61,670 nucleotides of DNA from a virus (lineage: Duplodnaviria > Caudoviricetes), in IMG/VR virus record IMGVR_UViG_3300042402_004691, positions 1 to 61,670 of that record, one strand, 5' to 3'. The notes under the pieces are model-generated. The model was not told where the DNA came from, ran no database searches, and saw nothing but the letters and a program-made list of their open reading frames with translations. How positions within the stretch are numbered: position 1 is the stretch's first letter; every line of letters begins with the position of its first letter. Shown in pieces: positions 40,239 through 61,299 of the stretch. The position numbers and the translations under genes are program-made.

Positions 40239-43200
40239 ATGAATAATTTAGGAAAATACTTAGTTGAAGAATTATTAAAAGAAATTGAAAATATTACAAA
40301 TTATGTTGTAGTATATTCAGGTAGATTTCAACCATTTCATAAAGGGCATTACGCAACTTACGAACATTTAGTTAAAAAGTTCGGAAAAGATAATGTTTAT
40401 ATTGGAACCTCCGATAAAACAGATAATCAAAAATCTCCATTTAATTTTAAGGAAAAGAAAACCATTATGACTAAAATGTTTGGAATATCTCCAAATAAAA
40501 TAGTTTTGGTTAAAAATCCTTATGCTCCAATGGAAATCCTAAAAAACTATGATGAAACTACAACTGCATTTATTACTGTAGTTGGTGAAAAGGATGAGCA
40601 GAGATTAGGTGGTAAGTATTTTACTCCATACAAAGGAGATTTGGATAGTGGATATAAAGATAAGGGATATGTGTACGCTTCACCTGCACAACCAAACGCA
40701 ATTAGTGGAACTGATGTAAGAAATTGGTTAGGAAAGGGTGAGATGGAAGATAGAAAACAACTTTTTAATAAAGCGTATCCAAAGTTTGATAAAAATATAT
40801 TTGATTTAATAACTAAAAAGTTAGATACCTTAAATGAGTCTAGTTCAATTGACTCGGGTGAACCTGACGTGGGATATTATGCGGATGGTACTAAACGAAT
40901 ACTGAATGGAGCTAAGCCAGAAATATGGTTTAAGCAAGGTGGATACATTCAGTTAGATAAACCTAAATCCGATTACATGAGAGGAAAGGGTAAGAATAAA
41001 GATACTGAGTCTCAATTCCGTAAAGTTACTTATGCGTTAAAGGGAGTTACCGCTCCAAAAACTGCTAAAGATAGTAAATCCAAAGTTGCACCATATCAAG
41101 TTGATAAATGGAAAAATGTAACATCTAAAAATGTAAAGAAAAAAGAAGATAGGTATTGGGATTTGGATAAAGTTAATGAAAGGATTTTTATACCAAAAGA
41201 GTTTATCGAAGAATGGGTTACTGAAAACTTAAATAGGATTTTAAGTGAAATATCAACATCAACTGCGGGACCTGCTACTAATAATGGGAAGATAGTAGAT
41301 GATGGACCTAATTTATTTTTTCCAAACTATGATACATTTAATGCTGTATCAAAAGTAAGAGCGGAGCAGATTGGATACACAATTTTCCAACAGATAATGG
41401 ATAAAAAGTATGAGGATTATTACGAACATCCAATATATCCAAAAGGACCACCATCAGTAGTTTCACCATTTCCTGCCGGAGTTATCGATGATGCATCCAA
41501 TGAAAAAGATTTAGCGGGTATTGAAGCATACGATGAATGGTATACTCACATCACTCGTTCTATGGCATTAGTGGGATATGAATTAGTTAAAGATTTTGAT
41601 AAATCATTTAAGGATTTGGCAATTAAAGATGCTGATAATATGAAGAAAGATGCTGGTGTAGAAAAAATAAAAAATACTGTTGTGGAAAGTGGTATGGGTT
41701 TGGCAATGGGTTACCCATCAAAAGAGCAACTCCTTCAAAAGAAAAAGGAAAGAGATGAGTTGAGAAAGAAAATGGATAAGGAAAGTGAATACTACCAAGC
41801 AGTAGAAGAAGATATTACTATACCATTGAATGTGGGTGATACGGTTTTAGGTGGCAAGTTTAAGAATAAAAAAATTGTGGTTAAGGATATAAGTAAAAAC
41901 GAAAAGGGAGAAGTGACAGTAAATGGAAAATCCCTATTAAAATACAGATTGATTGATGAAGCATACGATGAAGTAATTGCTGAATTGATGAAAGACCCAC
42001 AATTTGAAGGATTGTTGAGTGAAATACCAATGGCTGATTTACAACAACTTGATAAATTTGCAGATAAACAATTAGACCCTATTGATGTTGTATTAACCGG
42101 AAGACACTTTTTAGAAAGATTAGTTGATCCACGAAATAGTAAACCAATATCAGCTGCAGAACTTACTGGATTTTTTAAGAGATTGGCAAGAAAAAAGAAT
42201 GAGTTTGTGGAATTTCTTAAAAAATATGGTGAAATAGTTGCAAAGGATAACAGAACTAAAATCAACATTCCATTTATGCAACAGGCTAATAAGGCGATTG
42301 CAAAAACAATAATGAGAAAGGATGATTTTAAGACTCCATCACCTGAATTAAAGTTTGAAGTCATAACTGAAGATACTATAAAATACTTATCCAAATCATT
42401 GGGTATGAGTAGAAAAGATATGCCACAAATTAGTTCCAAACACATAGGAGATTTTGTGAAGTATCTAAACGATAAAGGAGTATCAGTATCACCATCAGTA
42501 ATAGATGTATCTAAAATTGGAATGACCCAAAAGGATATAAATGTGGATAAGGTAAAGGATTTATTGGGAGTGGAAAAATCCAACTTAGCAAAACCTGTTA
42601 TCATATCAAACGATGGATATATTTTGGATGGTCACCACAGAGTTGCAGCATTGTATAATGTGGATAAAAACTTTAAGTTAAAAACTATAAAAGTAGATCT
42701 AGGAATTAAGGATTTATTGAAAGCTGCGGGTGAGTTTCCAAAGGTATCATATAAGGGGATAGAAGAATATGCTGGATTTAAGACAAGTCATATTCAACCT
42801 GCTCCACCTATGAAAGGATTGGATGATCCTGATGATAATTGGAAAGATGTAAAAGAAGGATTGATTACAGAAGGTGGAGCGTATGGTCATATGAACCATC
42901 CGTTTGATACCGATATTAACTTAACTTTTGGGCAACTAAAGGATATTGTTAAAAAGGCATTGAATGGTGAATTGGAATTGACGAGAGAAAAAACCGATGG
43001 ACAGGCATTAGCAGTTAGTTGGGTAAATGGTAGATTGGTAGCAGCTAGGAACAAATCACACTTAAAGGATAAAGGTAAAGGTGCGATGGATATAAACGCA
43101 GTTGCTGCTAAGTTTGGTGGTAGAGGTGGATTAACCGATGCATACAACTTTGCAATGAAAGACCTTTCTGTTGCGGTTGATAAATTATCACAAAAGCAAA

Positions 43201-44069
43201 AAGATAAGATATTCGGTGGTGGTTCTAAGTTTATGAACTTGGAAGTTATATACCCATCATCAGTAAATGTTATACCATACGGACAGGCATTATTAGTATT
43301 TCACGGTACATTTGAGTACGATGAGGCTGGTAATATCATAGGTGAAGACCAGAATGCGGGTAAGATATTAGCGGGTATGATTAAACAGATAAATCAAAAT
43401 GTTCAATCCAAATATACTATACAAGGACCTCCTGTTGTAAAACTACCAAAGAACAAAGAGTTGAGTAAATCCCAACCTAAGTACTTTGCTATGATTTCTA
43501 AATTACAAAGTGAGTTTGGATTGAACGATAATCAAGGAGTAGCTGAATATCACCAAAAATGGTGGGAACAATTTATAGATAAAAATGCAAAAGGATTAGA
43601 TGCTCAACAAAAAATTGGATTAGTTAAGAGATGGGCATTTGGGGATAAAGGATTTAGATTAAAAGATATCGAAGATGAAACTATCCGTAATTGGGCAGAA
43701 GGAATTGATAAAACTGATCACTCAAAAATAAGTAAAGATAACTTAATGAAGTTTGAGAGAATATTTTTAGGAGTGGGAGCAGAAGTTCTATCATTTATGA
43801 GTTCAGTTCTAACTGTAAATCCGGATAAAGCAAAAAGAGCAATGGTTGATAGGTTAGAAGCCGCTATAAAGGATGTTGAAGCTAAAGGTGATGAAAAGCA
43901 GATACAAAAATTGAAATTGGAATTGCAAAGATTGCAAGATTTGGGAGGAGTTGATAAGATTGTTCCTAATGAAGGTATTGTATTTGTTTATGGTGGAAAT
44001 ACGATGAAACTAACTGGAGCATTCGCTCCTCTTAATCAACTATTGGGGATATTTTTTGATGGTAAGTAA
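40239..44069 (+). CDS. Multi-domain protein: HxGH nucleotidyltransferase, KOW-like, ParB/Srx-like and ligase-like domains
   Basis: GRFQPFHKGH...SGTDVR; VGDTVLGGKFK; PVIISNDGYILDGHHR; EKTDG; domains separated by xxE sites. Confidence 0.7.
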   Translation: MNNLGKYLVEELLKEIENITNYVVVYSGRFQPFHKGHYATYEHLVKKFGKDNVYIGTSDKTDNQKSPFNFKEKKTIMTKMFGISPNKIVLVKNPYAPMEILKNYDETTTAFITVVGEKDEQRLGGKYFTPYKGDLDSGYKDKGYVYASPAQPNAISGTDVRNWLGKGEMEDRKQLFNKAYPKFDKNIFDLITKKLDTLNESSSIDSGEPDVGYYADGTKRILNGAKPEIWFKQGGYIQLDKPKSDYMRGKGKNKDTESQFRKVTYALKGVTAPKTAKDSKSKVAPYQVDKWKNVTSKNVKKKEDRYWDLDKVNERIFIPKEFIEEWVTENLNRILSEISTSTAGPATNNGKIVDDGPNLFFPNYDTFNAVSKVRAEQIGYTIFQQIMDKKYEDYYEHPIYPKGPPSVVSPFPAGVIDDASNEKDLAGIEAYDEWYTHITRSMALVGYELVKDFDKSFKDLAIKDADNMKKDAGVEKIKNTVVESGMGLAMGYPSKEQLLQKKKERDELRKKMDKESEYYQAVEEDITIPLNVGDTVLGGKFKNKKIVVKDISKNEKGEVTVNGKSLLKYRLIDEAYDEVIAELMKDPQFEGLLSEIPMADLQQLDKFADKQLDPIDVVLTGRHFLERLVDPRNSKPISAAELTGFFKRLARKKNEFVEFLKKYGEIVAKDNRTKINIPFMQQANKAIAKTIMRKDDFKTPSPELKFEVITEDTIKYLSKSLGMSRKDMPQISSKHIGDFVKYLNDKGVSVSPSVIDVSKIGMTQKDINVDKVKDLLGVEKSNLAKPVIISNDGYILDGHHRVAALYNVDKNFKLKTIKVDLGIKDLLKAAGEFPKVSYKGIEEYAGFKTSHIQPAPPMKGLDDPDDNWKDVKEGLITEGGAYGHMNHPFDTDINLTFGQLKDIVKKALNGELELTREKTDGQALAVSWVNGRLVAARNKSHLKDKGKGAMDINAVAAKFGGRGGLTDAYNFAMKDLSVAVDKLSQKQKDKIFGGGSKFMNLEVIYPSSVNVIPYGQALLVFHGTFEYDEAGNIIGEDQNAGKILAGMIKQINQNVQSKYTIQGPPVVKLPKNKELSKSQPKYFAMISKLQSEFGLNDNQGVAEYHQKWWEQFIDKNAKGLDAQQKIGLVKRWAFGDKGFRLKDIEDETIRNWAEGIDKTDHSKISKDNLMKFERIFLGVGAEVLSFMSSVLTVNPDKAKRAMVDRLEAAIKDVEAKGDEKQIQKLKLELQRLQDLGGVDKIVPNEGIVFVYGGNTMKLTGAFAPLNQLLGIFFDGK

Positions 44070-44799: not shown

Positions 44800-46389
44800 A
44801 TGAGTATTCAAAAAAAATCATTAAAGGAAATTGTAGCGGATGAATATGTAAGGTGTTCAAAAGATCCTATACATTTTATGCGAAAGTATTGCATGATACA
44901 ACATCCTGTTAGAGGAAAAGTTCCATTTCACTTATATGAATTTCAAGAAAAAACTTTAACTGAATTATCAAACAATAGATTTAACATTATTCTAAAATCT
45001 AGACAGACTGGTATATCAACTCTTTCTGCTGGATTTTCTTTGTGGAAAATGTTATTCAACTCAGACTTTAATGTGTTGGTTATTGCTACAAAGCAGGAAG
45101 TTGCTAAAAACCTAGTAACCAAAGTAAGGGTAATGCATGAACTTCTACCTACCTGGTTAAAGGGTGGGAGTTTAGAAGATAATAAACTTTCCCTACGATT
45201 AAAAAATGGTTCCCAAATTAAAGCAATTGCTTCTTCACCAGATGCTGGGCGTTCTGAAGCACTCTCCCTACTAATTTTTGACGAAGCGGCATTCATTGAT
45301 GATATTGATGAAATATGGGCATCTGCTCAATCTACCCTTTCAACTGGTGGTAGTTGTATTGCGTTATCTACTCCTAATGGTGTGGGTAATTGGTTTCACA
45401 AAACTTGGGTAGGTGCTGAAGAAATGACAAATCCGTTTGTTCCAATTTCACTTCATTGGACATTACATCCGGAGAGAGATCAAAAATGGAGAGATGAGCA
45501 AAGTAAATTGTTGGGGGTTAAAATTGCAGCACAAGAATGTGATTGCTCATTTATTTCATCTGGTGATACTGTAATTGATCCTGATACATTGTTATTCTAT
45601 AAAGAAACATATTGTAAGGAGCCTGTTGAAAAGGGATACATAGATGGAAACTTATGGAAGTGGGAATATCCAGACTTCCAAAAATCATATATGGTTGTAG
45701 CTGACGTTGCAAGAGGTGATGGAGCTGACTTTTCAACTGCTCATGTCATTGATGTAGATACTGCAACTCAGGTAGCAGAATACAGAGGTAAGTTGGAAAC
45801 GAGAGATTTTGGAAACTTTTTAGTATCAATATCCACAGAATACAATGATGCTCTCCTAATAATTGAAAACGCAAACATTGGTTGGGCAGTAATTCAACAG
45901 GTGATAGATAGGGGATATAAAAACTTATTCTATATGAGTAAGGACTTGAAGTATGTAGATGTTGAGCATCAAATAACTAATAAATACAGAGCAGAAGAAA
46001 GGGGATTGGTTGCAGGATTTTCAACTACATCTAAAACACGTCCTTTAATTATATCCAAATTAGATGAATACTTTAGAGAAAGGACTGTTATAATTCGTTC
46101 TATACGATTGATAGATGAACTATTTACATTTATATTCATAAATGGTAGAGCAGAAGCAATGAGAGGATATAATGATGACTTGGTAATGGCGTTTGGAATT
46201 GGATTGTGGGTTAGGGATACCGCATTGAGATTGAGACAGCAGGGTATAAATCTAACTAAACACGCATTAGGTGGTATAGGATCGAACACTTCAATATACG
46301 ATGGAATGTATGGTGGAGTTGAGATGGATGAGAACCCTTGGAAAATGAAAGTGGGTGATAGTATTGAAGATTTAACAAAATGGTTGTAG
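44800..46389 (+). CDS. terL: Terminase large subunit (T4 gp17-like)
   Basis: LYEFQ, KSRQTGIS Walker A, LIFDEAAF Walker B, STPNG, ADVARG, ENAN, NDDLVMA nuclease motifs. Confidence 0.95.
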   Translation: MSIQKKSLKEIVADEYVRCSKDPIHFMRKYCMIQHPVRGKVPFHLYEFQEKTLTELSNNRFNIILKSRQTGISTLSAGFSLWKMLFNSDFNVLVIATKQEVAKNLVTKVRVMHELLPTWLKGGSLEDNKLSLRLKNGSQIKAIASSPDAGRSEALSLLIFDEAAFIDDIDEIWASAQSTLSTGGSCIALSTPNGVGNWFHKTWVGAEEMTNPFVPISLHWTLHPERDQKWRDEQSKLLGVKIAAQECDCSFISSGDTVIDPDTLLFYKETYCKEPVEKGYIDGNLWKWEYPDFQKSYMVVADVARGDGADFSTAHVIDVDTATQVAEYRGKLETRDFGNFLVSISTEYNDALLIIENANIGWAVIQQVIDRGYKNLFYMSKDLKYVDVEHQITNKYRAEERGLVAGFSTTSKTRPLIISKLDEYFRERTVIIRSIRLIDELFTFIFINGRAEAMRGYNDDLVMAFGIGLWVRDTALRLRQQGINLTKHALGGIGSNTSIYDGMYGGVEMDENPWKMKVGDSIEDLTKWL

Positions 46390-47258: not shown

Positions 47259-49037
47259 ATGGCAGAAGAAACTGATAGAAACTTTTTTGGTAGATTAAAG
47301 AAATTATTTTCAACAACTGCAATCGTAAGGATTGATAAGGAAGGTAACCGAAAGGTTGTAGATGTTGAGGAACGTCAAACAAACACAAACCTTTTACAAC
47401 TAAAAGATAGATATACCAAACTACAACGCTCTTTTTACGAAACGCATGCAGGTGCTCAATCGATGGCGTATCATCAGGTTCGTAAAGAACTATTTAGAGA
47501 TTATGATGCAATGGATAATGACCCAATCATTTCTTCTGCATTGGATATATATGCGGATGAGAGTACAACTAAAAATGAGTTTGGTGATGTATTACAAATC
47601 CGCTCATCAAATGAAAATGTAAGAGAAATACTACATAACCTATTCTATGATATTATAAATATTGAATTTAATCTCTGGCCTTGGACAAGAAACATGGTAA
47701 AGTATGGTGACTTCTTTTTAGGACTGGAAATTGCAGAAGGTAAGGGAGTTATAAATGTAATACCACAATCGGTATATTATAGTGAAAGAGTTGAGGGAGG
47801 AGACCCTAACAATGCAAACTCTGTAAAGTTTAAGGTAGAGCAGGATAGAACTGGTAAACTTGAATGGGAGAACTATGAAATGGCTCACTTCCGTTTATTA
47901 TCGGACACTAACTTTCTCCCATACGGTAAATCTATGATTGAAGGTGGTAGAAGGATTTGGAAGCAATTATCCCTAATGGAAGATGCGATGCTAATCCATA
48001 GAATTATGAGAGCACCTGAAAAGAGGGTATTTAAGATTGATATAGGTAATATACCACCGCAAGAAGTGGATAACTATATGCAGAAGATTGTGAATAAAAT
48101 GAAGAAGGTTCCCTTTGTAAATAAAGATACCGGCGATTATAACTTAAAATATAATATGCAAAATCTAACGGAGGACTTTTATTTACCGGTTAGAGGGGGT
48201 GATAGTGGAACATCTATTGAAAACCTAACAGGATTAGAATATGCTGCAACAGAGGATATTGAATTTTTACAGAAGAAATTATTTGCAGCACTTAGAGTTC
48301 CAAAAGCGTATTTATCTTATGATGAAAATATAAATGGTAAGGCTACCCTAGCGGCAGAAGATGTAAGATTTGCAAGAACGATTGAAAGAATACAGAGAAC
48401 CATCGTAAGTGAGTTGACGAAAATTGCAATAGTTCACTTAGCAGCTCAAGGGATTGATGATGCTGAAATGGTAAATTTTGATTTATCATTAACAAATGCA
48501 TCTACTATATATGAGCAAGAAAAAGTAAATCTTTGGTCTGAAAAGGTAAGATTGGCAACCGATATGGCGGCATTAAAGATGTTATCTAAAGAGTGGGTTT
48601 ACTCCAATGTATTTGGTATGAGTAACGATGAAATGGATGATGAGAGAGGTAAAATAGTAAATGACTTGAAGGATACATTCCGTTACAACTCTATAGAGAA
48701 TGACGGTAACGATCCAGCAGCTCAACCAGAACCAACAAAAGTGGAGGAAGAGTTGGAAGAATTAAAAAGAGAAATCTCAAACAGAGGATCTGGTGGAGCT
48801 GAAGGTGGTAGACCTAGAGAAGGTAACACCTATGGTAAGGATAAACATCCGTATGGTAGAGACCCATTGGGTGATAAAGAAAACCATACAGAAAGGAAGA
48901 GAGAAAACTACAATGGAGTAAGTAATAAAAAAATAGCACGTGAATATATAAATGGAATTTCATCAAAAAAGAAAATAATTATAGAAAAAAGTAACCTTTT
49001 AGATGAAAAAAATTTGTTAGATGATGATAAAATTTAA
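47259..49037 (+). CDS. Portal protein (T4 gp20-like)
   Basis: LMEDAMLIHRIMRAPEKRVFKIDIGN, EDFYLPVRGG, L.AALRVPK motifs. Confidence 0.95.
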   Translation: MAEETDRNFFGRLKKLFSTTAIVRIDKEGNRKVVDVEERQTNTNLLQLKDRYTKLQRSFYETHAGAQSMAYHQVRKELFRDYDAMDNDPIISSALDIYADESTTKNEFGDVLQIRSSNENVREILHNLFYDIINIEFNLWPWTRNMVKYGDFFLGLEIAEGKGVINVIPQSVYYSERVEGGDPNNANSVKFKVEQDRTGKLEWENYEMAHFRLLSDTNFLPYGKSMIEGGRRIWKQLSLMEDAMLIHRIMRAPEKRVFKIDIGNIPPQEVDNYMQKIVNKMKKVPFVNKDTGDYNLKYNMQNLTEDFYLPVRGGDSGTSIENLTGLEYAATEDIEFLQKKLFAALRVPKAYLSYDENINGKATLAAEDVRFARTIERIQRTIVSELTKIAIVHLAAQGIDDAEMVNFDLSLTNASTIYEQEKVNLWSEKVRLATDMAALKMLSKEWVYSNVFGMSNDEMDDERGKIVNDLKDTFRYNSIENDGNDPAAQPEPTKVEEELEELKREISNRGSGGAEGGRPREGNTYGKDKHPYGRDPLGDKENHTERKRENYNGVSNKKIAREYINGISSKKKIIIEKSNLLDEKNLLDDDKI

Positions 49038-49980: not shown

Positions 49981-50417
49981 ATTCAGCTAAGTTAAAGGAA
50001 ATCATACGAACTATTATTGGTGAAATCCAGAGTGAAGAAGAAATTGAAGAGGTTTCAACTACCGGCAGTGTATCTGGATATAATACTCCAAAAGCATTCG
50101 GTAAGGCTGGTGATGAAAAGGAAAAGGCTAAACGAATGGCTAAATCTGCTGGATACTCTGTAGTACATGAAGTAACTAATAGATATCATCAACTACGAAA
50201 GGAAGATGCAACTCCAAATCAAAAAATTGGTGTTGGTATTCGTAATATGAGAACTCAATTGGAAGAAATTGAAAAGTTTGTTGAATGGTATTCTAAAATA
50301 AAAACAGAAAGTGACTTGAACGGGTCCGATTATTGGAAACGAACTCAAAAACACTTAAATGTTATTAGAGAAAGATTAAATAAAATCTCACAAAAAATAC
50401 AAAACTTATCAGTATAA
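49977..50417 (+). CDS. Putative prohead core / internal protein
   Basis: LKEIIR..I.E leader, EEIEE|VSTTG.V.GY.TP.AF module. Confidence 0.65.
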   Translation: MNSAKLKEIIRTIIGEIQSEEEIEEVSTTGSVSGYNTPKAFGKAGDEKEKAKRMAKSAGYSVVHEVTNRYHQLRKEDATPNQKIGVGIRNMRTQLEEIEKFVEWYSKIKTESDLNGSDYWKRTQKHLNVIRERLNKISQKIQNLSV

Positions 50418-50959
50418 TGAAATTATCTCAATTAAAAGAAGAAATACGAAATATAATTAGAGAAGTAAAATTAGAAGAAGGTTTTACCAATCCTAAAGTA
50501 TCCAATCCAACTGAATTAGCTAAAATTGTGTTGGGTTGGTTTGATTTTTATACTGATTACATTGATGATGGTGGGCAGAGAAGACGAGCAATACAAAAGA
50601 ATGATAATACGCTAGAATGGTTCGGTTCTCATCCAGTAGATGTTAAGGAGAAAGCTTACAAGATAATCTTAGCACAAGCTAAAGGAGATAAATCTAAAAT
50701 TGAAAGAACTTTTGGTAAACATCTAAAAGAAGTAGTAACCGAAGAAAAGAAATACGACATCGGTTCTGGTTGGATGGGTAATGGTTTAACTATTTGGAAT
50801 AGAGCTGAAGAAAAAAATGGTGAATATAAAATAATTGCTCATATCAGTAAAGATGGAACACTAAAGATTTACGATAAGGCGTTGCCAAACGATATTAAGA
50901 AGATGTTTCAAATGTGGGCAGATACTATGAAAAAAGGTGATAGACCTGGTACATACTAA
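50417..50959 (+). CDS. Putative internal head protein (two modules)
   Basis: MKLSQLKEEIRNIIRE leader; LEE and VTEE junctions. Confidence 0.65.
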   Translation: MKLSQLKEEIRNIIREVKLEEGFTNPKVSNPTELAKIVLGWFDFYTDYIDDGGQRRRAIQKNDNTLEWFGSHPVDVKEKAYKIILAQAKGDKSKIERTFGKHLKEVVTEEKKYDIGSGWMGNGLTIWNRAEEKNGEYKIIAHISKDGTLKIYDKALPNDIKKMFQMWADTMKKGDRPGTY

Positions 50960-50983: not shown

Positions 50984-53317
50984 ATGAATAAAGAAACTTT
51001 GAAAGAGCTGGTAAAAAACATTTTGGGCGAAGAGTCTGAATATAAAGAATTTTTCAAAAAAGCATTAGATAAGGCTGGAAAATCTATACCTGATATGAGT
51101 GATGACGAGAAAAAAGCATTCTTCACTAAAATTGATGCCGCATGGGATGGTAAGGGTGAGAAGAAAACTGAAGGAAATACTTTCGGTGCAGAAAGAGCTA
51201 AAGCTATTGCCAGTGGTGATGACTCATTTAAGGTTGATGGAAAACCTTTCAAAGTAACTGGAGTTGATGCTGAAGATAAAGAAAATGCTGAAAAGTTTGC
51301 AAACGAAAGTGAATTACCCGCAGCAACATTACCAGCTTCAATCAAAGCAAAGTTAAGTATGGCTGTTGATAAAATTAAAGACTCTAAATTATCCTATAAC
51401 CAAAAAGTTCAAGTAGTTGGACAGGTAATGGATGGTTTGGGTATTGATAAGAGTGAGTTCACTAAAATGAGTTCAAAGTTAAAAGGTGCTATGGATGCTT
51501 CAAACGAAGGAAATACTTTTGGTGCAGAAAGAGCTAAGGCAATTGCTAAAGGTGATGACTCGTTTAAGGTTGATGGTAAACCTTTCAAAGTGACTGGAGT
51601 TGATGCTGAAGATAAAGAAAACGCTGAAAAGTTTTCTAACGAAAGTATTGTAAAAGAAGCTTCAGAGCCATTAAAGTTAAAAGGTATTAAAATTAACAAA
51701 AAGAGTGATATTACTTTTATTTTAGAAATTAGTTTCCTTATTGGTGAAGAAGTTGTTATTAGTTATTTAACTACTGGAACACAACAGGATGCACAAAAAC
51801 TAAAAAGTAAAATTGAAAAAGCATTCAATGCTGGAAAAATAGTTTCTCCATCAGGTATCGGTTATTACGCATACAATGAGTCAGTAATGAACGAAGAAAA
51901 ATATACTGTAATTGACCCAAATGGTAATCAAATGGGAGCTAGTGATAAAATGCAAGCTACAATGATTGCTAAGAAAAAGGGTGGTGAGAAAGCTGGATAC
52001 TTTGTAGTTTCTAATAAAAACGCATTGAAGGCTAGAAGAGCATTGGAAAAGTTTAAGGGAGATTTCACAAATCCAAAACTTAAAGATATGATGGCTGACC
52101 TTTTCTATGAGTCCGTAAACGAAGATTACGATGGACCTGCTATATTAAAAACTGGTGATAAAAACGCACTTAAAGTAGGTGAAACAATAACTATGAATAC
52201 AGGCGGTAAGAAAAAAGAATATAAAGTAGTAAAATCAAATGGTAATGGTGATTTTGTTCTACATTTAGTAGAGTCAGTAGAAGAAGCAACCACATCATCT
52301 GCACCTGGAGAATGGGTAGCATATTTATCAATGACAAGAGGTAAAAAGTTATTAAACACTTTTGATACCGCTAGAGGTGCTAAGCAGTTTTTAAGTAAAA
52401 ATGTGGATAAATTATTGGGTGGTGCTAATGTTGAGAGTGTAGGTATAATGACCAAACAACAATGGGATGAGAGAGAAGCCAAATACGCAGTAGAAGGTGT
52501 AAACGAAGCTGTTGATGTTAAAGCTGGGGGATATCGTCTTGTATCAAAACCTGATGAAGGAGTTAAACTATATTATGGTGGTAAAGTAATTGCAACCGGA
52601 TTTTATGATATGGATGATTGGTATTTTTGGATGAAGCATTCTAATTGGAAAGGAAGTGATATGGGATTTAATAATCCTAAAGAGATAATCAACTATTTTA
52701 GAGCAAAAAAGATTACAACCGAGTCAGTAAACGAAGCAGCAAAACCAACTATTAAAGTTGTAAATAAACTTAAAAATGAAGAAGGTATCCAGATAGTAGT
52801 AACTAAAACTACTGATGGTGATACAATGTATGGTGGGTTTGTAGTTCGTGGTAAACTTCAAAAAGTTATTCCAGTTGGTGCAAATAGTTCTAAAGAAGGT
52901 GTTAAAAAGAGAGCATTACAGATTTGGGACGAATTTGGAAAACAATTGGGTGAGAAGATAAACGAGGATAAAATTGACTGGGCAGATTTTTACAAAATGG
53001 CTAAAGATACTTCAGGATACAATCCTAATTTTGAAAAAAAATATGGAAAGGTATTGAGTAGACCTCATGTTGCAGATGCAGTAAAAACAGCAAAAGATTT
53101 CAAATCATTTATGCAATTTATACAAAAATTTGAAAACATAAACGAAGGAAATGCTTTTGGAATGGCGGTAACTGCGGCTAAAAAAGAAGGATTGAAAGAG
53201 TTTGAGTTTAACGGAAAAATGTATAAAGTTAAGCAAGGTTCTTATGAGAAAAACGAAGCCGCTAAAAAGCCAGTAGTTTTATCTGGATTTACTTTAGTGC
53301 CTGAAAAGAAAAAATAA
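50984..53317 (+). CDS. Modular polyprotein with ESVNE-type linkers and an internal 47-aa duplication
   Basis: About ten modules separated by ESVNE/ESVEE/EGVNE/EKINE/ENINE. Confidence 0.75.
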   Translation: MNKETLKELVKNILGEESEYKEFFKKALDKAGKSIPDMSDDEKKAFFTKIDAAWDGKGEKKTEGNTFGAERAKAIASGDDSFKVDGKPFKVTGVDAEDKENAEKFANESELPAATLPASIKAKLSMAVDKIKDSKLSYNQKVQVVGQVMDGLGIDKSEFTKMSSKLKGAMDASNEGNTFGAERAKAIAKGDDSFKVDGKPFKVTGVDAEDKENAEKFSNESIVKEASEPLKLKGIKINKKSDITFILEISFLIGEEVVISYLTTGTQQDAQKLKSKIEKAFNAGKIVSPSGIGYYAYNESVMNEEKYTVIDPNGNQMGASDKMQATMIAKKKGGEKAGYFVVSNKNALKARRALEKFKGDFTNPKLKDMMADLFYESVNEDYDGPAILKTGDKNALKVGETITMNTGGKKKEYKVVKSNGNGDFVLHLVESVEEATTSSAPGEWVAYLSMTRGKKLLNTFDTARGAKQFLSKNVDKLLGGANVESVGIMTKQQWDEREAKYAVEGVNEAVDVKAGGYRLVSKPDEGVKLYYGGKVIATGFYDMDDWYFWMKHSNWKGSDMGFNNPKEIINYFRAKKITTESVNEAAKPTIKVVNKLKNEEGIQIVVTKTTDGDTMYGGFVVRGKLQKVIPVGANSSKEGVKKRALQIWDEFGKQLGEKINEDKIDWADFYKMAKDTSGYNPNFEKKYGKVLSRPHVADAVKTAKDFKSFMQFIQKFENINEGNAFGMAVTAAKKEGLKEFEFNGKMYKVKQGSYEKNEAAKKPVVLSGFTLVPEKKK
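51170..51646 (+). repeat. 141-bp direct repeat pair (51170-51310 and 51506-51646)
   Basis: Both encode EGNTFGAERAKAIAxGDDSFKVDGKPFKVTGVDAEDKENAEKFxNES; differences mostly synonymous. Confidence 0.95.
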
Positions 53318-53352: not shown

Positions 53353-53577
53353 TTGGAAACTTCACCATATAACTATCTAGCATTTAAGTTAGTATTAACT
53401 AATTCTATAATAGAAAACTTTATTATAGATAACAATATTGACATTTTAGCTTTTGTAGCCTATATTAGGAAAACAAATGATGTAGAGACCAGATTTATAA
53501 AAAATACAATAAACAATAAAAATGATATTTATTATAAAGAAATTTTGATAAGTAGATTTAGAAAACTAAATAAATAA
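53353..53577 (+). CDS. Possible small hypothetical protein
   Basis: TTG-start 74-aa ORF filling the gap, ATATTTAT at 53332; very AT-rich. Confidence 0.4.
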   Translation: METSPYNYLAFKLVLTNSIIENFIIDNNIDILAFVAYIRKTNDVETRFIKNTINNKNDIYYKEILISRFRKLNK

Positions 53578-53579
53578 AA

Positions 53580-54176
53580 ATGAATAAGGGATTATTAATA
53601 GAAACTCAATTATTTGAAGGCAAAGTTCAAGAAGATGCTAGTGGTAGAGTCTTGGTAAACGGAGTTTTACAGAGAGCTGGTGCAGAAAACCAAAATGGTA
53701 GAGTGTATCCTAAATCCATTCTTGAAAGAGAAGCTAAAAAGTATGAGCAACTAATTAAAGAGAGAAGAGCATTGGGGGAATTAGACCATCCAGACTCTTC
53801 AGTAATCAACTTAAAAAATGTATCACACAACATTAGAGAAATACATTGGGAAGGTGATGATTTAGTTGGAACTGTTGAAATACTCCCTACTCCATCTGGT
53901 AACATTCTAAAAGAGTTATTGAACGCTGGAATACTTTTGGGTATATCATCTAGAGGTATGGGTTCAACTAAACCTGTTGGAGGTAATAAGGTGGAGGTTC
54001 AAGAAGACTTTGAATTAGTTGGTTGGGATTTCGTATCTAACCCTTCAACTCATGGTGCATTTATGAGACCTATGAATGAGAGTGTGAGTAAAAAACTGCA
54101 AGAGCAGACGAATGTATGTGGAGATTATTGCAGAGCGCAAGACCTTATGAGAGAAATAATAACTGAAATTGGATAA
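53580..54176 (+). CDS. Prohead maturation protease (T4 gp21-like)
   Basis: NQNGRVYP, ALGELDHP, NVSH, TPSG, GISSRGMG, DFVSNPS motifs. Confidence 0.95.
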   Translation: MNKGLLIETQLFEGKVQEDASGRVLVNGVLQRAGAENQNGRVYPKSILEREAKKYEQLIKERRALGELDHPDSSVINLKNVSHNIREIHWEGDDLVGTVEILPTPSGNILKELLNAGILLGISSRGMGSTKPVGGNKVEVQEDFELVGWDFVSNPSTHGAFMRPMNESVSKKLQEQTNVCGDYCRAQDLMREIITEIG

Positions 54177-54180
54177 CAAA

Positions 54181-54915
54181 ATGGCAAGAGAAGAATTTGA
54201 TATATATAATTATGTTCATAAGAACAAATTTAACTTAAAAGTTGAAGAACCTGCTCATGCAACTAAAGTTGCTAAAGCGTATAATGATATTCGTAAAACC
54301 AACATCAATGAAATTAAAATTGTTGATGGTAAGTTTTCATTATCAGAGTCATTAAGTTCTAATACAGATAGACCATTTGCAACTGAAGTTAAAAAGCACT
54401 TTTTGGAAATCATTTCTACATACACATCATTCCACGAACAAATGAAGAGAAACTCTGACATTGTGGAAACTGCTGATACATTAGGTGGTGTAATTGAGGC
54501 TGCTAAAACTCTCACATTGAAAGAAGCTGGTGATTGGTTTGATAAAGTAACGGTGAAGCGTAACATGAAAGAATTGGATAGGCTGGATACATCATTTGAT
54601 AAGGTAGCAAAAGAAGCCAGAGCATTAGACCAAAGATTACACGCACTTTACGAAGATATGGGTAACATTTTGGGAAGATACTACGAAATCTCAGACTTAG
54701 ATCCTAATGTAATGAGAGAGAGATTGGGATTAAAAGAAAAAGTTGAAGAGTCTGTATATAGTGTAGTTGTATCACAGAATGGTAAAAAGATTGGCAAGAA
54801 AACTGCATCTAAATCTCAATTAAAAGAAACTGTTTCTAGATTAAAATCAAAATATACTAACTCTACCATTTCTATATTAAATGAGAGTGGTAAGGTTGTA
54901 AAGATTGTAAAATAA
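54181..54915 (+). CDS. Hypothetical head-module protein
   Basis: ATG at 54181 after the protease stop; LYEDMGNILGRYYEI; appended module after VEE|S. Confidence 0.7.
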   Translation: MAREEFDIYNYVHKNKFNLKVEEPAHATKVAKAYNDIRKTNINEIKIVDGKFSLSESLSSNTDRPFATEVKKHFLEIISTYTSFHEQMKRNSDIVETADTLGGVIEAAKTLTLKEAGDWFDKVTVKRNMKELDRLDTSFDKVAKEARALDQRLHALYEDMGNILGRYYEISDLDPNVMRERLGLKEKVEESVYSVVVSQNGKKIGKKTASKSQLKETVSRLKSKYTNSTISILNESGKVVKIVK

Positions 54916-54922
54916 TATACCG

Positions 54923-55732
54923 ATGATAAAATTAGGTGGTTTAATTAAAGAAGCATTGGGAAAGCCAGGACAACTAATCCCAAATCCTTATGCTCGAGCA
55001 TTTGCTCCTATAAAAGAAGCAGATGAGGATCATGAAGTTAAAATGGCTCAAGGGCAGTTGGATTACATTATAAAAACCGCTAATGAATTAAAACAAAAGC
55101 TGGGAAATGCTGAAAAGAATATTCCAGGTTGGATACAAGACCATATAAGTAAAGCACATAGTTATTTACACCAATCCAATTCAGGTTATCACGAATACAA
55201 TGGTGGTATGAACGAAGAGGCACCGTGTTGGAAAGGATATAAGCAAGTTGGTATGAAAGATAAGGGTGGTAGACAAGTTCCAAATTGTGTACCTAATGAG
55301 TCTGTAGTGAATGAGAGTGATTATAACTTCGGTTCTACGGAGTACACACTTAAAAATATGACTCCATCTCAAATACAGGATTTGGCATTAGCGTATCAAC
55401 AAGCAAATATTACTAGAATAACTGGAAAAACTATGGATGGTAGAATTAGAGCTTCTAGGGATTTGGCTAGGTTAGTTGGTAAAAACCCAATAAAACCTGA
55501 TGAAAAATCTAAAGAACCCGCTTTATTACTACAACTATATAAATCAAAACTTATTAGTTTGGATGATTATAAAAAATTATATAATGAATTATTGACTAAG
55601 TTGAAAAGCGTAAATGCAAAATATATATTAAAGTATGATCCAGCTGGTAGAAATGATAAAACACTTGATAAAGTGTTGGCAAAAGCAGCCGCTAAAGCAG
55701 ATATGAGGCAAGATTTTAATTATAGGAGATAA
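54923..55732 (+). CDS. Modular putative internal head protein
   Basis: MIKLGGLIKE leader; modules DHEVKMAQ..., APCWKGYKQVGMK...VPNCVP and a third after ESVVNE. Confidence 0.7.
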   Translation: MIKLGGLIKEALGKPGQLIPNPYARAFAPIKEADEDHEVKMAQGQLDYIIKTANELKQKLGNAEKNIPGWIQDHISKAHSYLHQSNSGYHEYNGGMNEEAPCWKGYKQVGMKDKGGRQVPNCVPNESVVNESDYNFGSTEYTLKNMTPSQIQDLALAYQQANITRITGKTMDGRIRASRDLARLVGKNPIKPDEKSKEPALLLQLYKSKLISLDDYKKLYNELLTKLKSVNAKYILKYDPAGRNDKTLDKVLAKAAAKADMRQDFNYRR

Positions 55733-55744: not shown

Positions 55745-55772
55745 AAAAGGTTTGGAAATCCAAACCTTTTTT
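55745..55772 (+). terminator. Intrinsic terminator overlapping a -33 element
   Basis: AAAAGGTTTGG AAAT CCAAACCTTTT plus T-run. Confidence 0.75.
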
Positions 55773-55782
55773 CGTATATTTG
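55751..55782 (+). promoter_or_regulatory. Bacteroidota-type promoter, probably leaderless transcript
   Basis: TTTGG(55751) ... TATATTTG(55775-55782), ATG at 55788. Confidence 0.75.
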
Positions 55783-55787
55783 TGGGT

Positions 55788-57128
55788 ATGAATATAAAAC
55801 CATTTTCCATATTAGATACGAGAACTAAAGAGTGGCAGGATAGAAAGCGGTGGTGGATACGAACCCATAACATCCAGTCCGAATTAGGTAGAGAGGAGAC
55901 TCAATCCAATAGTAAGTTTTGGGAAACTGATGAAGTATCTGTATCCATATTTGATGCTACTCTATGTGAGTTGATGTATAAGTGGTTTGTTCCAAAGGGT
56001 GGTAAGGTATTGGACCCATTTGCGGGTGGTAGTGTTAGAGGTATAGTTGCGGAGGAAAGTGGATACGAATACATCGGCATAGATATATCCACAACACAGA
56101 TAGAAGCGAATAAATTACAATCTTCTAAACCAACCTATTTCGAAGGTGATAGTGAGGTTCTGTTGCAAACCCATATACCGAATGGTTCTGTTGATTTTGT
56201 CTTCACCTGCCCCCCTTATTATGATTTAGAGGTATACTCCAATAATCCCAACGATTTATCCAATTTATCCGTAGAAGATTTTGATAAAAAATATCGTTCC
56301 ATACTCAAAAAATCTGCGGATAAGTTAAAAGATAACCGATTTTTTAGTGTAGTGGTAAGTGAAGTGAGGGAGCAATCCGTAACTGGAAATTACAAAATTG
56401 GAAAGTACAAAGGGTTAGTTTGGAAAACGATACAATTTTTAGAGGAGTGTGGATTATCATTCTATAACGATATGGTACTCTTTAATTCACAACATCAAGC
56501 ATCTAGAGTAGTGGATACTTATTTTGAGAGAAACCGAAAGGTGGCATCGGTGCATCAAAACATATTGGTATTTGTGAAAGGTAATCCTGATATAGCAACC
56601 GAAGTCATAAAAAATGGTGATAACTTTGTGTGTAGAGTAAACGGAACTCCATATCGTTCATTTAGAGAAGCTGCAATCCATATAAATCCAAATGAGTTGG
56701 TAGCAACTGAAGTCCAAAGAAGGTGTCTCTCTACCAAATCCAAATACAAAGAGTGGCAGATAATTGGTGAAGAAACCAAACCCGTAATACGATATGAGAT
56801 TGATGGGATACCATTTGAGTCACCATTACAAATGACGGATTTAATTGGAGGTGATATTACAGAAGGTCAAATAAGAGGTTGGATAAACTCAAACAATCCA
56901 CAATGGAGACATTGGAAAGTGGTAGATGATGGGAAGTGGGATATTACCTATGATGAAATGGAAACCCTATGGGGAGAAGATATTCGGTTTGAGTTACCTA
57001 TTATAGAATGTGATGGTAGAGAGTTCATTTCACAAAAAGATGCGGCAGAATACTTTGGTATAAGTGTTGAAAGGGTTAGACAAAAACTGAAATCGGACAA
57101 ACATACCGATTGGAAATATCTTTTTTAG
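55788..57128 (+). CDS. Amino (N6A/N4C) DNA methyltransferase with three C-terminal NUMOD1/IENR1-like repeats
   Basis: VLDPFAGG motif I, TCPPYY motif IV; three (V/I/C)(N/D)G..(Y/F).S...helix...W repeats. Confidence 0.8.
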   Translation: MNIKPFSILDTRTKEWQDRKRWWIRTHNIQSELGREETQSNSKFWETDEVSVSIFDATLCELMYKWFVPKGGKVLDPFAGGSVRGIVAEESGYEYIGIDISTTQIEANKLQSSKPTYFEGDSEVLLQTHIPNGSVDFVFTCPPYYDLEVYSNNPNDLSNLSVEDFDKKYRSILKKSADKLKDNRFFSVVVSEVREQSVTGNYKIGKYKGLVWKTIQFLEECGLSFYNDMVLFNSQHQASRVVDTYFERNRKVASVHQNILVFVKGNPDIATEVIKNGDNFVCRVNGTPYRSFREAAIHINPNELVATEVQRRCLSTKSKYKEWQIIGEETKPVIRYEIDGIPFESPLQMTDLIGGDITEGQIRGWINSNNPQWRHWKVVDDGKWDITYDEMETLWGEDIRFELPIIECDGREFISQKDAAEYFGISVERVRQKLKSDKHTDWKYLF

Positions 57129-57169: not shown

Positions 57170-58291
57170 ATGCCAGCAACATCACAACAACAACAAAAAC
57201 TTTTTGGATTAGCACTATCGGTGAAAAGGGGTGAAACTCCACGAAGTGAAGCCAGTGATGAGGTATTGAATATAGTAGATACTATGAGTGAAAAAGATAT
57301 TGAAGATTTTGCAGCAACATCTTATAGTGGATTACCTACAAAAGTAGAAAGTTTAATACGAAACTTGGTAAGAGAAACTTTTAGAAACGAAATCCTAAAC
57401 GAAGAAGAAGAGCAGTTAGATGAAAAACTAATTACATTCTCAAATCGTTCACCTTATGGGCAGATTGTGTTTATAGCAGGTGGAGCTGGTAGTGGTAAAG
57501 GATTTGCAGTATCAAACTTTTTGGACTCATCTGGATTTAAGGTGAGAGATGTGGATGAGATGAAAAAGCAAATCCAAAAGTTAAACGCTATTGGTAAAAT
57601 CTCAATTCAGCAGATATTAGACAAATTTAGCAGAAATATCGCACCAAAGGATATCGATATTATAAAGAAAATACAGGCAGATGGGTTTGAGTTAAAAACA
57701 ATGAACTTAAAAAACCCAGATCATGTGTACGCATTACATATTCTCGTAGATGCTATGGGTATCAAAGATAAAACTTTGGAAAATATGTTAGCTGCAAAAT
57801 CTAATCCAGAAACATTACCAAATATTATTTTTGATATTACTGCTAAAAAAGTCACTTCAATAACTGAAGTATTACCAGCATTGGAAAGTGTAGGATACAA
57901 AGCTGAAAATATACATTTAGTTTGGGTTCTTACTGATTACAACATTGCAATCAAACAAAATGCGGATAGAGAAAGAGTTGTTCCTGCTGATATTATGTTA
58001 CAGACTCATGTTGGAGCTGGAAACACAATTTGGGGAATTGTAACTTCTGCATTACCAAAAGGTATGAATGGTAGAGTTGATGTGATACTAAACAATCAAG
58101 AAAACACTATATTCTACATCCAAAGAACAACTGATAAAAAGACTGGAAAGAAAAAACCTGTTGTATCTGGGTTCTTATCCTTACCTGTTAAAAAGCAGGG
58201 TGGTGGAATACTTCCAGAAAAAGTATGGAGAGATATACTCTATAAGTGGATTAAAGATAACGGTCCAGAAGAATTAACATCTAATATGTAA
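57170..58291 (+). CDS. P-loop kinase-like protein with N-terminal PATSQQQQK module
   Basis: GGAGSGKG Walker A, DVD, IIFDIT, NADRER lid (zeta-toxin/PNK-like); LDE junction before the kinase. Confidence 0.7.
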   Translation: MPATSQQQQKLFGLALSVKRGETPRSEASDEVLNIVDTMSEKDIEDFAATSYSGLPTKVESLIRNLVRETFRNEILNEEEEQLDEKLITFSNRSPYGQIVFIAGGAGSGKGFAVSNFLDSSGFKVRDVDEMKKQIQKLNAIGKISIQQILDKFSRNIAPKDIDIIKKIQADGFELKTMNLKNPDHVYALHILVDAMGIKDKTLENMLAAKSNPETLPNIIFDITAKKVTSITEVLPALESVGYKAENIHLVWVLTDYNIAIKQNADRERVVPADIMLQTHVGAGNTIWGIVTSALPKGMNGRVDVILNNQENTIFYIQRTTDKKTGKKKPVVSGFLSLPVKKQGGGILPEKVWRDILYKWIKDNGPEELTSNM

Positions 58292-59679: not shown

Positions 59680-61299
59680 ATGGCAAATTTTGATTTAACT
59701 AAATTAATGGAGGGTAAAAACCCACAGTCCGTAATGTTGGAACAAACAAGAGGATTGAAAAGTAAATGGACCAAAACTGGTCTATTAGAAGGCTTGAAAG
59801 AAAGAGATCAGCATGCAATGTCTGTTCTTCTTGAAAACCAAGCTAAGCAATTATTGGATGAGGCAACTCAAACTGGTACTGCTGCTGGTTCTGAAGAGTG
59901 GAGTGGTGTTGCTCTACCTTTGGTAAGACGTATCTTTGGTGATATTGCATCAAAAGAATTCGTTTCTGTACAACCTATGAACTTACCATCTGGTCTTATT
60001 TTCTATCTAGACTTCAAATATGGTAACGCTGTAGCTGGAAGAACTGATACTGAATCACTTTTCGGTGGTGATGCTAACGCTAAATTGGGATCTACTAACG
60101 TAGCTGCTAACGGTCTTTATGGTGAAGGACGATATGGTTATTCAGTAAACGAAGACTCTGATAGTGGAGTAACTTTCACTTCTGCTTCTGCAACTTGGAG
60201 TGAAGTTGGATATGATGGAGCACTTTCTGCATCTATTGTAGCTGGACAAATCTTCAAAGTAACTGTAGCTTCTACTCAATTGACTCCAACTTTGGCTGGT
60301 TCAACTGTTGATGCTGAAGCTGTTCGTTCATTCGTAGTTTCTGGTTCTAATGTTATTTCTAACATTTCTCAGTTCCACGCTAAAGCTGGTTCTAACTTCG
60401 TATTCTTTGTTTCTGGTTCTGCTTCTGCAGCTATTGCAGGTGTTAAGGTAACTTACTCTGTAGTTCCTGCTGATTACAACAGAGGTGATTTCGAAGATAA
60501 AGACCCTATCAATGGAACTGGTACTTCTGGTTTGAATGATGGAACTGACCTTCAGATCCCAGAAATCGATTTGGAACTTCGTTCTGAAGCCATCGTTGCT
60601 AAGACTCGTAAGTTGAAGGCAGTATGGACTCCTGAATTGGCACAAGATTTGAATGCTTACCATTCAATCGATGCTGAAGCTGAATTGACTTCTATGTTAT
60701 CTGATTACATCTCTTTGGAAATCGATTTGGAAATCCTTGATATGTTGAAGGCTAACGCTTTGACAACTGATTACTGGTCCGCAACCGTTGGTGAGGAATT
60801 GGTAAATGGTACTTGGGTAGCTGGAACAAACGCTTTGGCTTACCAGAAGAACACTTGGTTCCAAACTTTGGGTGTTAAATTGAACAAAGTATCTAACAAA
60901 ATCCATCAGTTAACTCTTAGAGGTGGTGCTAACTTTATCGTAGCTTCTCCAGATGTATGTACTATTTTGGAATCAATTCCTGGTTTCGTAGTAACTTCTG
61001 AGAAGGATAGCATGAAGTTCGCTGCTGGTGTAACTCAAGTAGGTGCACTTTCTAACAGATACACTGTATATAAGAACCCTTATATGACTTCTAACGAAAT
61101 CTTATTGGGTTACAGAGGAAATAACTTCTTGGAGACTGGTGCGGTTTACGCTCCTTATGTACCGTTGATTATGACTCCTTTGGTGTACGATCCTCAAAAT
61201 TTCACCCCAAGACGTGGTGTGATGACAAGATACGCTAAGAAATTAGTTCGTCCTGAGTACTATGGTAAGATCTACATCAAAGATTTGAATTCTTTGTAA
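59680..61299 (+). CDS. Major capsid protein (T4 gp23-like)
   Basis: LLENQ, LVRR, VQPM..P.GL.F, AKTRKLKA.WT.E.AQDL...H.IDAE.EL, YAPYVPL, DP..F.P..G..TRY. Confidence 0.97.
   Translation: MANFDLTKLMEGKNPQSVMLEQTRGLKSKWTKTGLLEGLKERDQHAMSVLLENQAKQLLDEATQTGTAAGSEEWSGVALPLVRRIFGDIASKEFVSVQPMNLPSGLIFYLDFKYGNAVAGRTDTESLFGGDANAKLGSTNVAANGLYGEGRYGYSVNEDSDSGVTFTSASATWSEVGYDGALSASIVAGQIFKVTVASTQLTPTLAGSTVDAEAVRSFVVSGSNVISNISQFHAKAGSNFVFFVSGSASAAIAGVKVTYSVVPADYNRGDFEDKDPINGTGTSGLNDGTDLQIPEIDLELRSEAIVAKTRKLKAVWTPELAQDLNAYHSIDAEAELTSMLSDYISLEIDLEILDMLKANALTTDYWSATVGEELVNGTWVAGTNALAYQKNTWFQTLGVKLNKVSNKIHQLTLRGGANFIVASPDVCTILESIPGFVVTSEKDSMKFAAGVTQVGALSNRYTVYKNPYMTSNEILLGYRGNNFLETGAVYAPYVPLIMTPLVYDPQNFTPRRGVMTRYAKKLVRPEYYGKIYIKDLNSL

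Follow-up and report, generated by a model that had tools for sequence, protein, structure and literature searches.

A candidate cargo polyprotein in the head-gene block of an uncultured T4-like lake phage, built of small modules that are exchanged at a short linker

The viral record IMGVR_UViG_3300042402_004691 of IMG/VR, a stretch of 61,670 bases that was analysed at its full length (the window), comes from a distant T4-like, uncultured lake-water phage. It raises the question of what is made by the long open reading frame (ORF) that stands between the portal and prohead-protease genes of its head-gene block (Table 1). The ORF reads as a constant N-terminal domain (N-domain) followed by 11 small modules, seven of which end in a short linker peptide of the type E-S-V-N-E. 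The reading that we prefer, with a probability of about 0.65, is that it encodes a head-loaded cargo polyprotein: the N-domain would load it, the S77 prohead protease encoded next to it would cut the linkers and free a set of mini-proteins, and the modules are exchanged at the linkers.

An array of unrelated modules joined by one type of linker

The ORF and seven linkers within it had been picked out earlier from the DNA letters alone (hereafter the sequence-only reading), and all of them are present in the window. The pattern E-[SGKN]-[VI]-x(0,1)-[NE]-E was matched seven times in the polyprotein, compared to a mean of 0.064 matches in 5000 residue shuffles, and 0/5000 shuffles reached seven. 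In the remaining 47 ORFs of the window (18,659 amino acids, aa) there were three matches, two of them within adjoining head genes. The linker array is a real feature and not a product of chance. Weaker boundaries, which read x-[NT]-E or N-E-S, were seen at four further places, after residues 62, 109, 174 and 221, and cutting the protein at these and at the seven linkers gave the N-domain and the 11 modules, which are 47-83 aa long.

Based on BLASTP comparison, 10 of the resulting 12 segments are mutually unrelated. All module pairs outside A1, A2 and A3 had E values of at least 0.12, and the claim that the modules are unrelated in sequence was thus borne out except for these three. Modules A1 and A2 are identical in 45 of 47 residues. 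The sequence-only reading had described them as an exact duplicate of 141 nucleotides (nt), which they are not, as the identity between 51170-51310 and 51506-51646 is 91 % at the nt level. The diverged third copy that it had placed near the C-terminus was found, as A3, with 37 % identity over 41 aa to A1 and A2 (E about 1e-5). An A3-type module is the usual C-terminal module of close relatives.

A full-length AlphaFold2 model, made with 28 collinear homologues, had a mean predicted local distance difference test (pLDDT) score of 56.3 and a predicted template-modelling score (pTM) of 0.21; the pTM of the ESM Atlas model was 0.19. Segments with pLDDT below 50 span all 11 module boundaries, and the modules reach values of 60-78 with helices and sheets of their own. 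As far as models of low overall confidence can be used, they argue for independent small domains on flexible linkers and not for one compact fold. The alternative of a protein folding as one unit, which had been raised together with the array, found no counterpart in the AlphaFold2 model.

No Pfam family at E <= 0.01 and no PHROG was matched by the polyprotein, including the DUF3008 (PF11450) profile, and a PDB sequence search gave 0 matches at E <= 1. Searches of Pfam and PHROGs with 27-28 homologues returned only weak dockerin or EF-hand matches and DUF3008 matches. When module G was compared within the ESM Atlas, the best feature score was 0.75 with template-modelling scores of 0.5-0.6 to unnamed clusters; these were kept as leads only and no function was drawn from them.

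Gain, loss and exchange of modules at the linkers

A homologue search gave 428 proteins at E <= 0.001 among 8000 scored candidates, and the best 120 of the 428 (427-1180 aa) were taken together with the window protein (121 proteins, 7260 pairs). The 120 homologues cover the query in a very patchy way: the N-domain is kept, and it is followed by differing strings of modules joined by ESVNE-type peptides. End-points of high-scoring segment pairs (HSPs) from BLAST, both gapped for the query against the 120 and ungapped for all against all, gave only a blurred signal and were dropped. They were replaced by global pairwise alignments, because HSPs stop at small indels and enter the conserved linkers. 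When the alignments of seven close relatives were read, all 16 of the 16 gap rows with matching flanks (eight distinct events, 54-191 aa) ran from linker to linker. In this manner module E is missing in P0001-P0006 and module I in P0001, P0005 and P0006.

The larger set contained 540 clean indels of at least 20 aa, corresponding to 430 unique inserted segments, of which 396 remained after 34 proline-rich ones had been removed. Both ends could be placed after a Glu (within 2 residues) for 280 of the 396 (71 %), compared to 5.6 % in random placement, and in 88 of the 396 both ends coincided exactly with [VI]-x(0,1)-N-E, compared to 0.47 % in random placement. Clean indels end at linkers 20-50 times more often than randomly placed ones, and the residue profile of the indel junctions is E (39 %), S (38 %), V (52 %), N (57 %), E. 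The prediction that indels among orthologues would break at the linkers was confirmed both in the close relatives and in the whole set.

Segmentation and clustering of the 121 proteins gave 948 segments, which fall into 179 module families, 93 of these being singletons. Module content, whose invariance among relatives would have spoken against a cassette-like array, varies widely: there are 112 different module architectures in the 121 proteins, a family can have up to 20 different neighbours, and 83 of 454 family pairs were found in both orders. The module families have tight length distributions, e.g. 75-81 aa.

Some of the units found in the relatives are unusual in composition. One module family (206-356 aa; P0024, P0028, P0032, P0033, P0035 and others) is a long proline-rich repeat, P-P-P-G-V-K/R-P-K..., and in another a stretch resembling a membrane helix, G-I-G-T-I-A-L-G-V-A-G-G-L-L-L-L, comes first. 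Also widespread is a third unit, a dockerin- or EF-hand-like Ca-binding loop (best Pfam E value 9.9e-8, in P0100). In the relatives P0008, P0010 and P0012 a homologue of the 180-aa ORF (50417-50959) is fused in frame to the polyprotein, and the N-domain is internal.

The constant part of the gene was also followed. A scan of viral contigs for the N-domain gave at least 312 confirmed relatives among the 594 pattern matches listed, and 80 of these were kept; loci are designated by L-numbers. In 36 of 38 loci of at least 9 kb the N-domain ORF lies between a homologue of the 146-aa ORF and the protease, and in two of the 36 one small unassigned ORF separates it from the protease. The 50 unique complete N-domain ORFs range from 63 to 699 aa with a median of 182, and in seven of the 50 the N-domain alone is the whole ORF (63-69 aa). 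In most architectures the N-domain comes first, either bare or behind a DUF3008 leader. Since the N-domain is kept, and sometimes kept alone, it is the conserved gene, to which the array has been added.

The genes around it show similar behaviour. Homologues of the 146-, 248- and 269-aa ORFs vary from 61 to 746 aa in length, and relatives of the 146- and 180-aa upstream ORFs contain module arrays or occur as fusions with the polyprotein. An N-terminal helix of the type K-L-K-E-hydrophobic is common to the 146-, 180- and 777-aa ORFs and to the acidic protein encoded upstream of the capsid gene, and in three consecutive ORFs this helix ends in I/L-x-E. A tblastn search of the polyprotein against 50,697 phage records gave no match. 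Among 498 pattern matches in 185,579 species genomes there was one relative, on a 314-kb contig (L094). This contig has been binned into a metagenome-assembled genome of Candidatus Obscuribacterales and is probably a mis-binned large phage contig.

Near-identical modules were found in phages with diverged backbones. For module G the identity to L005 and L006 is 93-96 % at the nt level, compared to about 75 % between their portal and TerL genes and those of the window. In both loci the block sets in at the linker upstream of the module; it tails off shortly after the downstream linker in L005, and stops where this linker begins in L006. Similarly, a 231-nt block of module C is 94.4 % identical in L013 (portal 78.8 % identical), and a 171-nt block of module E is 93.6 % identical in L037 and L039 (portals 72.9 % identical). 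In total, 82 blocks of at least 120 nt and at least 92 % identity join 64 pairs of loci with portals less than 82 % identical; their identity is 92-97 % and their commonest length 234-235 nt.

Junctions of the same kind were seen in contigs of four lake metagenome runs, in which 10 of the 18 loose ends listed fall at five linker places, namely 51650 (three runs), 52115 (two runs), 52286 (two runs), 52499 and 52958. In four of the five the place is the V/I codon within a linker, in the fifth it is the first base after one, and at three of the V/I-codon places the loose part of the contig ends in GAATCA. A joint in run X9 leads from 52950 to 51650 with AGAATCA between, which puts module H ahead of module C in another genome. 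A weak joint in the same run, 51084 to 52115 (side 27), was not used. The lake contigs are short assemblies of mixed communities, which show that the junctions exist and say nothing of their frequency. Taken together, modules are shuffled, and are exchanged laterally between phages, at the linkers. As this exchange takes place at a stereotyped linker that is conserved also as DNA, the array behaves as an in-frame cassette system.

DNA-level conservation of the linkers, which the sequence-only reading had noted for this ORF, holds across the relatives. One 15-mer, GAATCAGTAAACGAA, makes up 38 of the 74 ESVNE linkers with unique context (51 %), whereas codon usage predicts 4 % for this word and at most 7.4 % for any 15-mer. 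Codon use in the linkers also differs from that in the rest of the same ORFs (TCA 70 % compared to 34 %, GTA 95 % compared to 46 % and AAC 78 % compared to 36 %). It is possible that the linkers are protease sites only, that their DNA sameness comes from descent and that random, illegitimate recombination is followed by selection which keeps the junctions at linkers. This would agree with the third-position identity of the linkers, 0.80, which lies inside the 0.56-0.89 range of 11 invariant orthologous control motifs and is thus not above some of them; DNA conservation alone is therefore no proof of a nucleotide-level function. It would agree also with the length of the stretch shared at the junctions, which is merely 9-16 nt (e.g. 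GAGTC-GTA at the module E deletion). However, the linkers flank unrelated modules and yet share one 15-mer well beyond expectation, and linkers between unrelated modules are as alike as orthologous sites, which fits copying or recombination. The clustering of contig branch places at the V/I codon, with GAATCA at three of them, likewise speaks against descent only, and T4-type recombination is described as needing only small (<50 bp) patches of homology, with short conserved elements guiding cassette exchange (PMC2839356). We regard this explanation, which concerns the DNA-level claim and no other part, as somewhat unlikely.

That the linkers act as recombination microhomologies is compatible with the data, as is selection for in-frame junctions. 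A bolder version would give the linker a dual purpose. As a peptide it would be the cut site of the head protease, and as a 15-nt DNA word the recombination site of integron-like in-frame cassettes, by which lake phages with about 25 % backbone difference would trade capsid-delivered mini-proteins, many of them for counter-defence, loaded by one carrier domain. We put this forward tentatively, as a possible view of which we remain doubtful in its full extent.

The linker as a putative cleavage site and the fate of the modules

The T4 protease gp21 is described as cutting after L/I-X-E, with the site originally defined at a Glu-Ala bond (PMC9026906), and the phiKZ and SPN3US proteases as cutting after S/A-X-E and A-X-E, respectively (PMC9026906, PMC10052503). 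According to the same sources, proteases of the gp21 type remove their own C-terminal piece. The end of the linker, [V/I]-N-E, fits the T4-type [L/I]-x-E rule, with Val at P3 as a variant. ESVNE occurs 324 times in the 73,827 aa of the 121 proteins, compared to 0.135 expected from composition, and ES[VI]NE is followed by A (133 times), G (74), E (49) or S (40) at 296 of its 359 occurrences.

A motif of the same kind is found in the protease. Within their last 55 residues, 34 of the 37 unique proteases from the loci contain [VILM]-N-E, and nearly all of the sequences shown have it as P-[V/M]-N-E|S behind the catalytic domain and before a tail of 25-30 residues. The S77 protease of the window has P-M-N-E|S-V behind its catalytic domain. 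This motif is likely a self-cleavage site. In the capsid protein Q-L-L-D-E|A is conserved 19 residues before the segment that aligns with residues 98-152 of T4 gp23, and the counterpart in T4 gp23 is L-T-E|A at residues 63-66.

The distribution of the linker over the loci is narrow. ES[VI]NE was found only in the variable classes around the protease and in unassigned ORFs of the block; it was found 0 times in TerL (26,593 aa) and portal (39,842 aa) of the loci, and 0 times in their 291-aa ORF class, protease, 374-aa acidic class, capsid protein and methyltransferase. The circumstantial support is strong, and the linker is probably a protease site. A ribosome-skipping peptide of the 2A type was rejected, as the linker is without the N-P-G-P signature known for such peptides.

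In the mechanism that we propose, the N-domain would be a small protein of the prohead core and the head-loading (core-binding) part of the polyprotein, carrying any sequence attached to its C-terminal side into the prohead during assembly. The neighbouring gp21-type protease would cut after the Glu of each E-S-[V/I]-N-E linker, which would set free mini-proteins of 47-83 residues, about a dozen in number, each folded on its own and most of them basic when the acidic linker tail is discounted. The mini-proteins would remain in the head with the DNA and probably be ejected into the host. In addition, the gain, loss and reordering of modules, and their exchange between phages, take place at the linker. 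Fast turnover and lateral exchange point, speculatively, to roles in host interaction or counter-defence.

Several observations weigh against this mechanism or parts of it. The N-domain gave no alignment with T4 gp67, and its match to T4 gp68, with an E value of 0.011 over 20 residues, is not significant. No module was matched in Pfam, PHROGs or PDB sequences, and an effector role is therefore without direct support. Of the 396 clean indels, 116 could not be placed after Glu at both ends, many of these being module replacements or small alignment shifts, and some of the 82 near-identical blocks begin at nt 1 of an ORF and may be conserved N-terminal parts. The low overall confidence of the structure models and the unexceptional third-position identity of the linkers belong here as well. 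Finally, the capsid site L-L-D-E differs from the linker, and the protease specificity is for this reason only inferred; cleavage, packaging and ejection are likewise steps that we infer from the sequence.

It may be that the linkers are cut but that the modules are expendable filler of the prohead core or scaffold, or basic DNA counter-ion proteins, and not specific effectors; they would drift and shuffle freely because their exact sequence matters little. The polyprotein has an isoelectric point (pI) of 9.0, and the pI is above 8 in eight of the 11 modules after the N-domain (B, C, D, F, G, H, I and A3), which would suit such a role, the more so as T4 internal proteins are described as touching DNA phosphates via lysines (PMC3012670). 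The family searches recognised no enzymatic or inhibitor family among the modules, and the number of modules per array runs from 0 to above 10 in the relatives, so that no single module is essential. However, three modules (A1, A2 and E) are acidic, and modules which are 92-97 % identical at the nt level across phages with backbones 73-82 % identical, and which keep tight lengths, behave as selected, folded units. We consider the filler explanation unlikely.

Least probable, in our opinion improbable, is an uncleaved beads-on-a-string virion protein (decoration, fibre or inner-body) in which E-S-V-N-E would be a flexible, soluble hinge inherited with the modules: linkers of low pLDDT suit hinges equally well as cut sites, and T4-type capsids have modular repeat proteins (Hoc is the head decoration protein in the T4 record), but a hinge needs neither an invariant final Glu nor a small residue after it, V/M-N-E recurs behind the catalytic domain of the proteases, the linkers occur only in portal-to-capsid genes next to the protease, and the gene sits in the portal-protease interval, which in the T4 record is occupied by the prohead-core genes 67 and 68.

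If the cargo polyprotein is what we propose, one short element would both load many small proteins via a single targeting domain and permit their exchange with the reading frame intact. These phages would then hold a large unannotated reservoir of small folded proteins (179 families in 121 proteins, none of them in Pfam or PHROGs) present at the onset of infection, a stage at which T4 IPI and other counter-defence factors act. A design rule for multi-cargo loading of T4-type capsids would also follow: carrier domain, linker, cargo, repeated.

Related systems and the head-gene neighbourhood

Judged by analogy, the best reading of the polyprotein is as a variant of two known systems, the T4 internal proteins and the polyvalent proteins. 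The T4 proteins IPI, IPII, IPIII and Alt are described as having N-terminal targeting, as being cut by gp21 after [L/I]-x-Glu and as being kept in the head (PMC3012670, PMC9026906), and as a set that differs strongly between related phages, in which the targeting part alone is conserved (PMC3012670). A T4-type phage and a hypervariable set are common to both, and here the constant N-terminal part may have a targeting role and the linkers are putative gp21-type sites. The T4 internal proteins are, however, described as separate genes, each with a tag of roughly 10 residues and usually one cut, whereas here a single reading frame holds a 62-residue carrier and, behind it, as many as about a dozen modules with 7-11 internal sites. 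Pfam, PHROGs and the direct comparison to gp67 and gp68 revealed no sequence similarity to T4 proteins; IPI, IPII, IPIII and Alt were not directly compared.

Polyvalent proteins of phages and conjugative elements are reported to contain 2-15 domains, to be predicted to enter the host with the DNA, to shuffle domains extensively and to have domains released by peptidases (Iyer et al. 2017, PMC5512222). The several unrelated domains per polypeptide and the shuffled architectures are thus common features. As described there, polyvalent proteins have recognisable enzymatic or DNA-binding domains and most often a zincin-like metallopeptidase (MPTase) of their own, whereas here the modules are orphans of 47-83 residues, the prohead protease is separate and one uniform peptide forms the junctions. 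No Pfam match at E <= 0.01 to the signature domains of polyvalent proteins (zincin-like MPTase, ART, kinases, nucleases) was found in the polyprotein.

In the giant phages phiKZ, 201phi2-1 and SPN3US a diverged gp21-type protease is described as cutting many head proteins after Glu, and several sites per protein are possible, as in the polyprotein (PMC9026906, PMC10052503). The extra sites described for these phages lie in propeptides that are removed, leaving one mature product, whereas here each piece between sites is product-like and is shuffled between phages. The PeSLs of T4-type phages are short conserved repeats flanking small orphan cassettes and are reported as preferred recombination sites (Arbiol et al. 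2010, PMC2839356). There too, cassettes are inserted, deleted and exchanged at a short repeated element with the neighbours unharmed. The PeSLs are described as intergenic promoter-terminator elements of about 100 bp among early genes, whereas the linker here is 15 nt long and lies in frame within a late head gene.

In open-access papers and bioRxiv, in-frame arrays of mini-proteins joined by head-protease sites were not found. Polymorphic toxins (the VENN motif of CdiA, the core ends of Rhs) also join a constant delivery part to a variable cargo at a short peptide which is conserved at the DNA level and at which the exchange takes place. In these a single C-terminal tip is exchanged and the cargo, a toxin, is accompanied by an immunity gene, whereas the present system has a many-module array, no toxin signature and, as we propose, delivery by the phage head.

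The window has a GC content of 33 % and is about 34 % complete according to CheckV. Flavobacterium phage immuto and Microcystis phage Mel-JY01 encode capsid proteins that share about 51-53 % identity with that of the window. The cultured phage immuto has the same gene order and no ESVNE array, and was for this reason rejected as an experimental stand-in for the array. Near-identical DNA was found in lake-water metagenomes, with at least half of the sampled words in 18 runs, each from a separately coded study; two RNA runs contained 5-6 % of the sampled words. The S77 protease gene starts 262 nt downstream of the polyprotein gene, and a very acidic, scaffold-like protein of 374 aa is encoded between the DUF3008/P-loop ORF and the Gp23 gene.

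Table 1 Features of the window discussed in the text
Feature	Position	Strand	Remarks
Large terminase TerL	44800-46389		T4-type head block
Gp20 portal	47259-49037		T4-type head block; three small ORFs between portal and polyprotein
ORFs of 146 aa and 180 aa	49977..50959	+	Upstream of polyprotein; N-terminal K-L-K-E-hydrophobic helix as in N-domain
Polyprotein ORF	50984..53317	+	777 aa; N-domain and 11 modules (order N, A1, B, A2, C, D, E, F, G, H, I, A3)
Constant N-terminal domain	50984..51169	+	Residues 1-62; ends G-K-G-E-K-K-T; first helix ends I-L-G-E (L-x-E type site)
Module A1	51170..51310	+	47 aa; G-N-T-F-G type
Module B	51311..51505	+	65 aa, helical
Module A2	51506..51646	+	Copy of A1
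Module C	51647..51895	+	83 aa; C-terminal linker ESVMNE 51878-51895
Module D	51896..52123	+	76 aa; C-terminal linker ESVNE 52109-52123
Module E	52124..52285	+	54 aa; C-terminal linker ESVEE 52271-52285
Module F	52286..52507	+	74 aa; C-terminal linker EGVNE 52493-52507
Module G	52508..52735	+	76 aa; C-terminal linker ESVNE 52721-52735
Module H	52736..52966	+	77 aa; C-terminal linker EKINE 52952-52966
Module I	52967..53146	+	60 aa, helical; C-terminal linker ENINE 53132-53146
Module A3	53147..53317	+	G-N-A-F-G type, diverged relative of A1/A2; basic C-terminal tail and stop codon
Peptidase_S77 (T4 gp21-type) prohead protease	53580..54176	+	Pfam PF03420 3e-28; phrog_207 8.6e-52
ORFs of 248 aa and 269 aa	54169..55732	+	Variable class; second has ESVVNE linker at about 55298-55315
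N6/N4 DNA methyltransferase	55752-57128	+	C-terminal I-TevI-type DNA-binding domain, 5e-7
DUF3008 and P-loop protein	57170-58291	+	373 aa; N-terminal DUF3008 (PF11450) 1.5e-11
Gp23-type major capsid protein	59680..61299	+	Likely propeptide site Q-L-L-D-E|A near residue 61

Some further features of the neighbourhood may be mentioned. In the 373-aa ORF DUF3008 is followed by the sites I-L-N-E and Q-L-D-E and then by the P-loop part, which has a weak zeta-toxin/CoaE-like match. DUF3008 sits ahead of the polyprotein N-domain in some relatives; it may be a second head-associated leader, and the 373-aa protein may be a packaged enzyme. The methyltransferase gene sits among head genes, and some relatives have it while others are without it.

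The 269-aa ORF (54923-55732) contains a Cys-bearing unit, C-W-K-G-Y ... N-C-V-P, between M-N-E-E and E-S-V-V-N-E. The same unit is found inside the polyproteins P0026 and P0040, and it matches seven PHROGs without assigned function. The core of the 248-aa ORF (54169-54915, + strand), K-E-A-G-D-W-F-D-K-V-T-V, resembles by eye module family 38 of the relatives; if the two are the same, one unit can be either a free-standing gene or a module. The gap between polyprotein and protease holds an AT-rich ORF of 74 aa with a TTG start (53353-53577, + strand), which had no family match and may be a non-coding spacer. Upstream of the head block there are three very long ORFs on the + strand, at 13492-18480, 28084-34734 and 40239-44069, of 1662, 2216 and 1276 aa, respectively.

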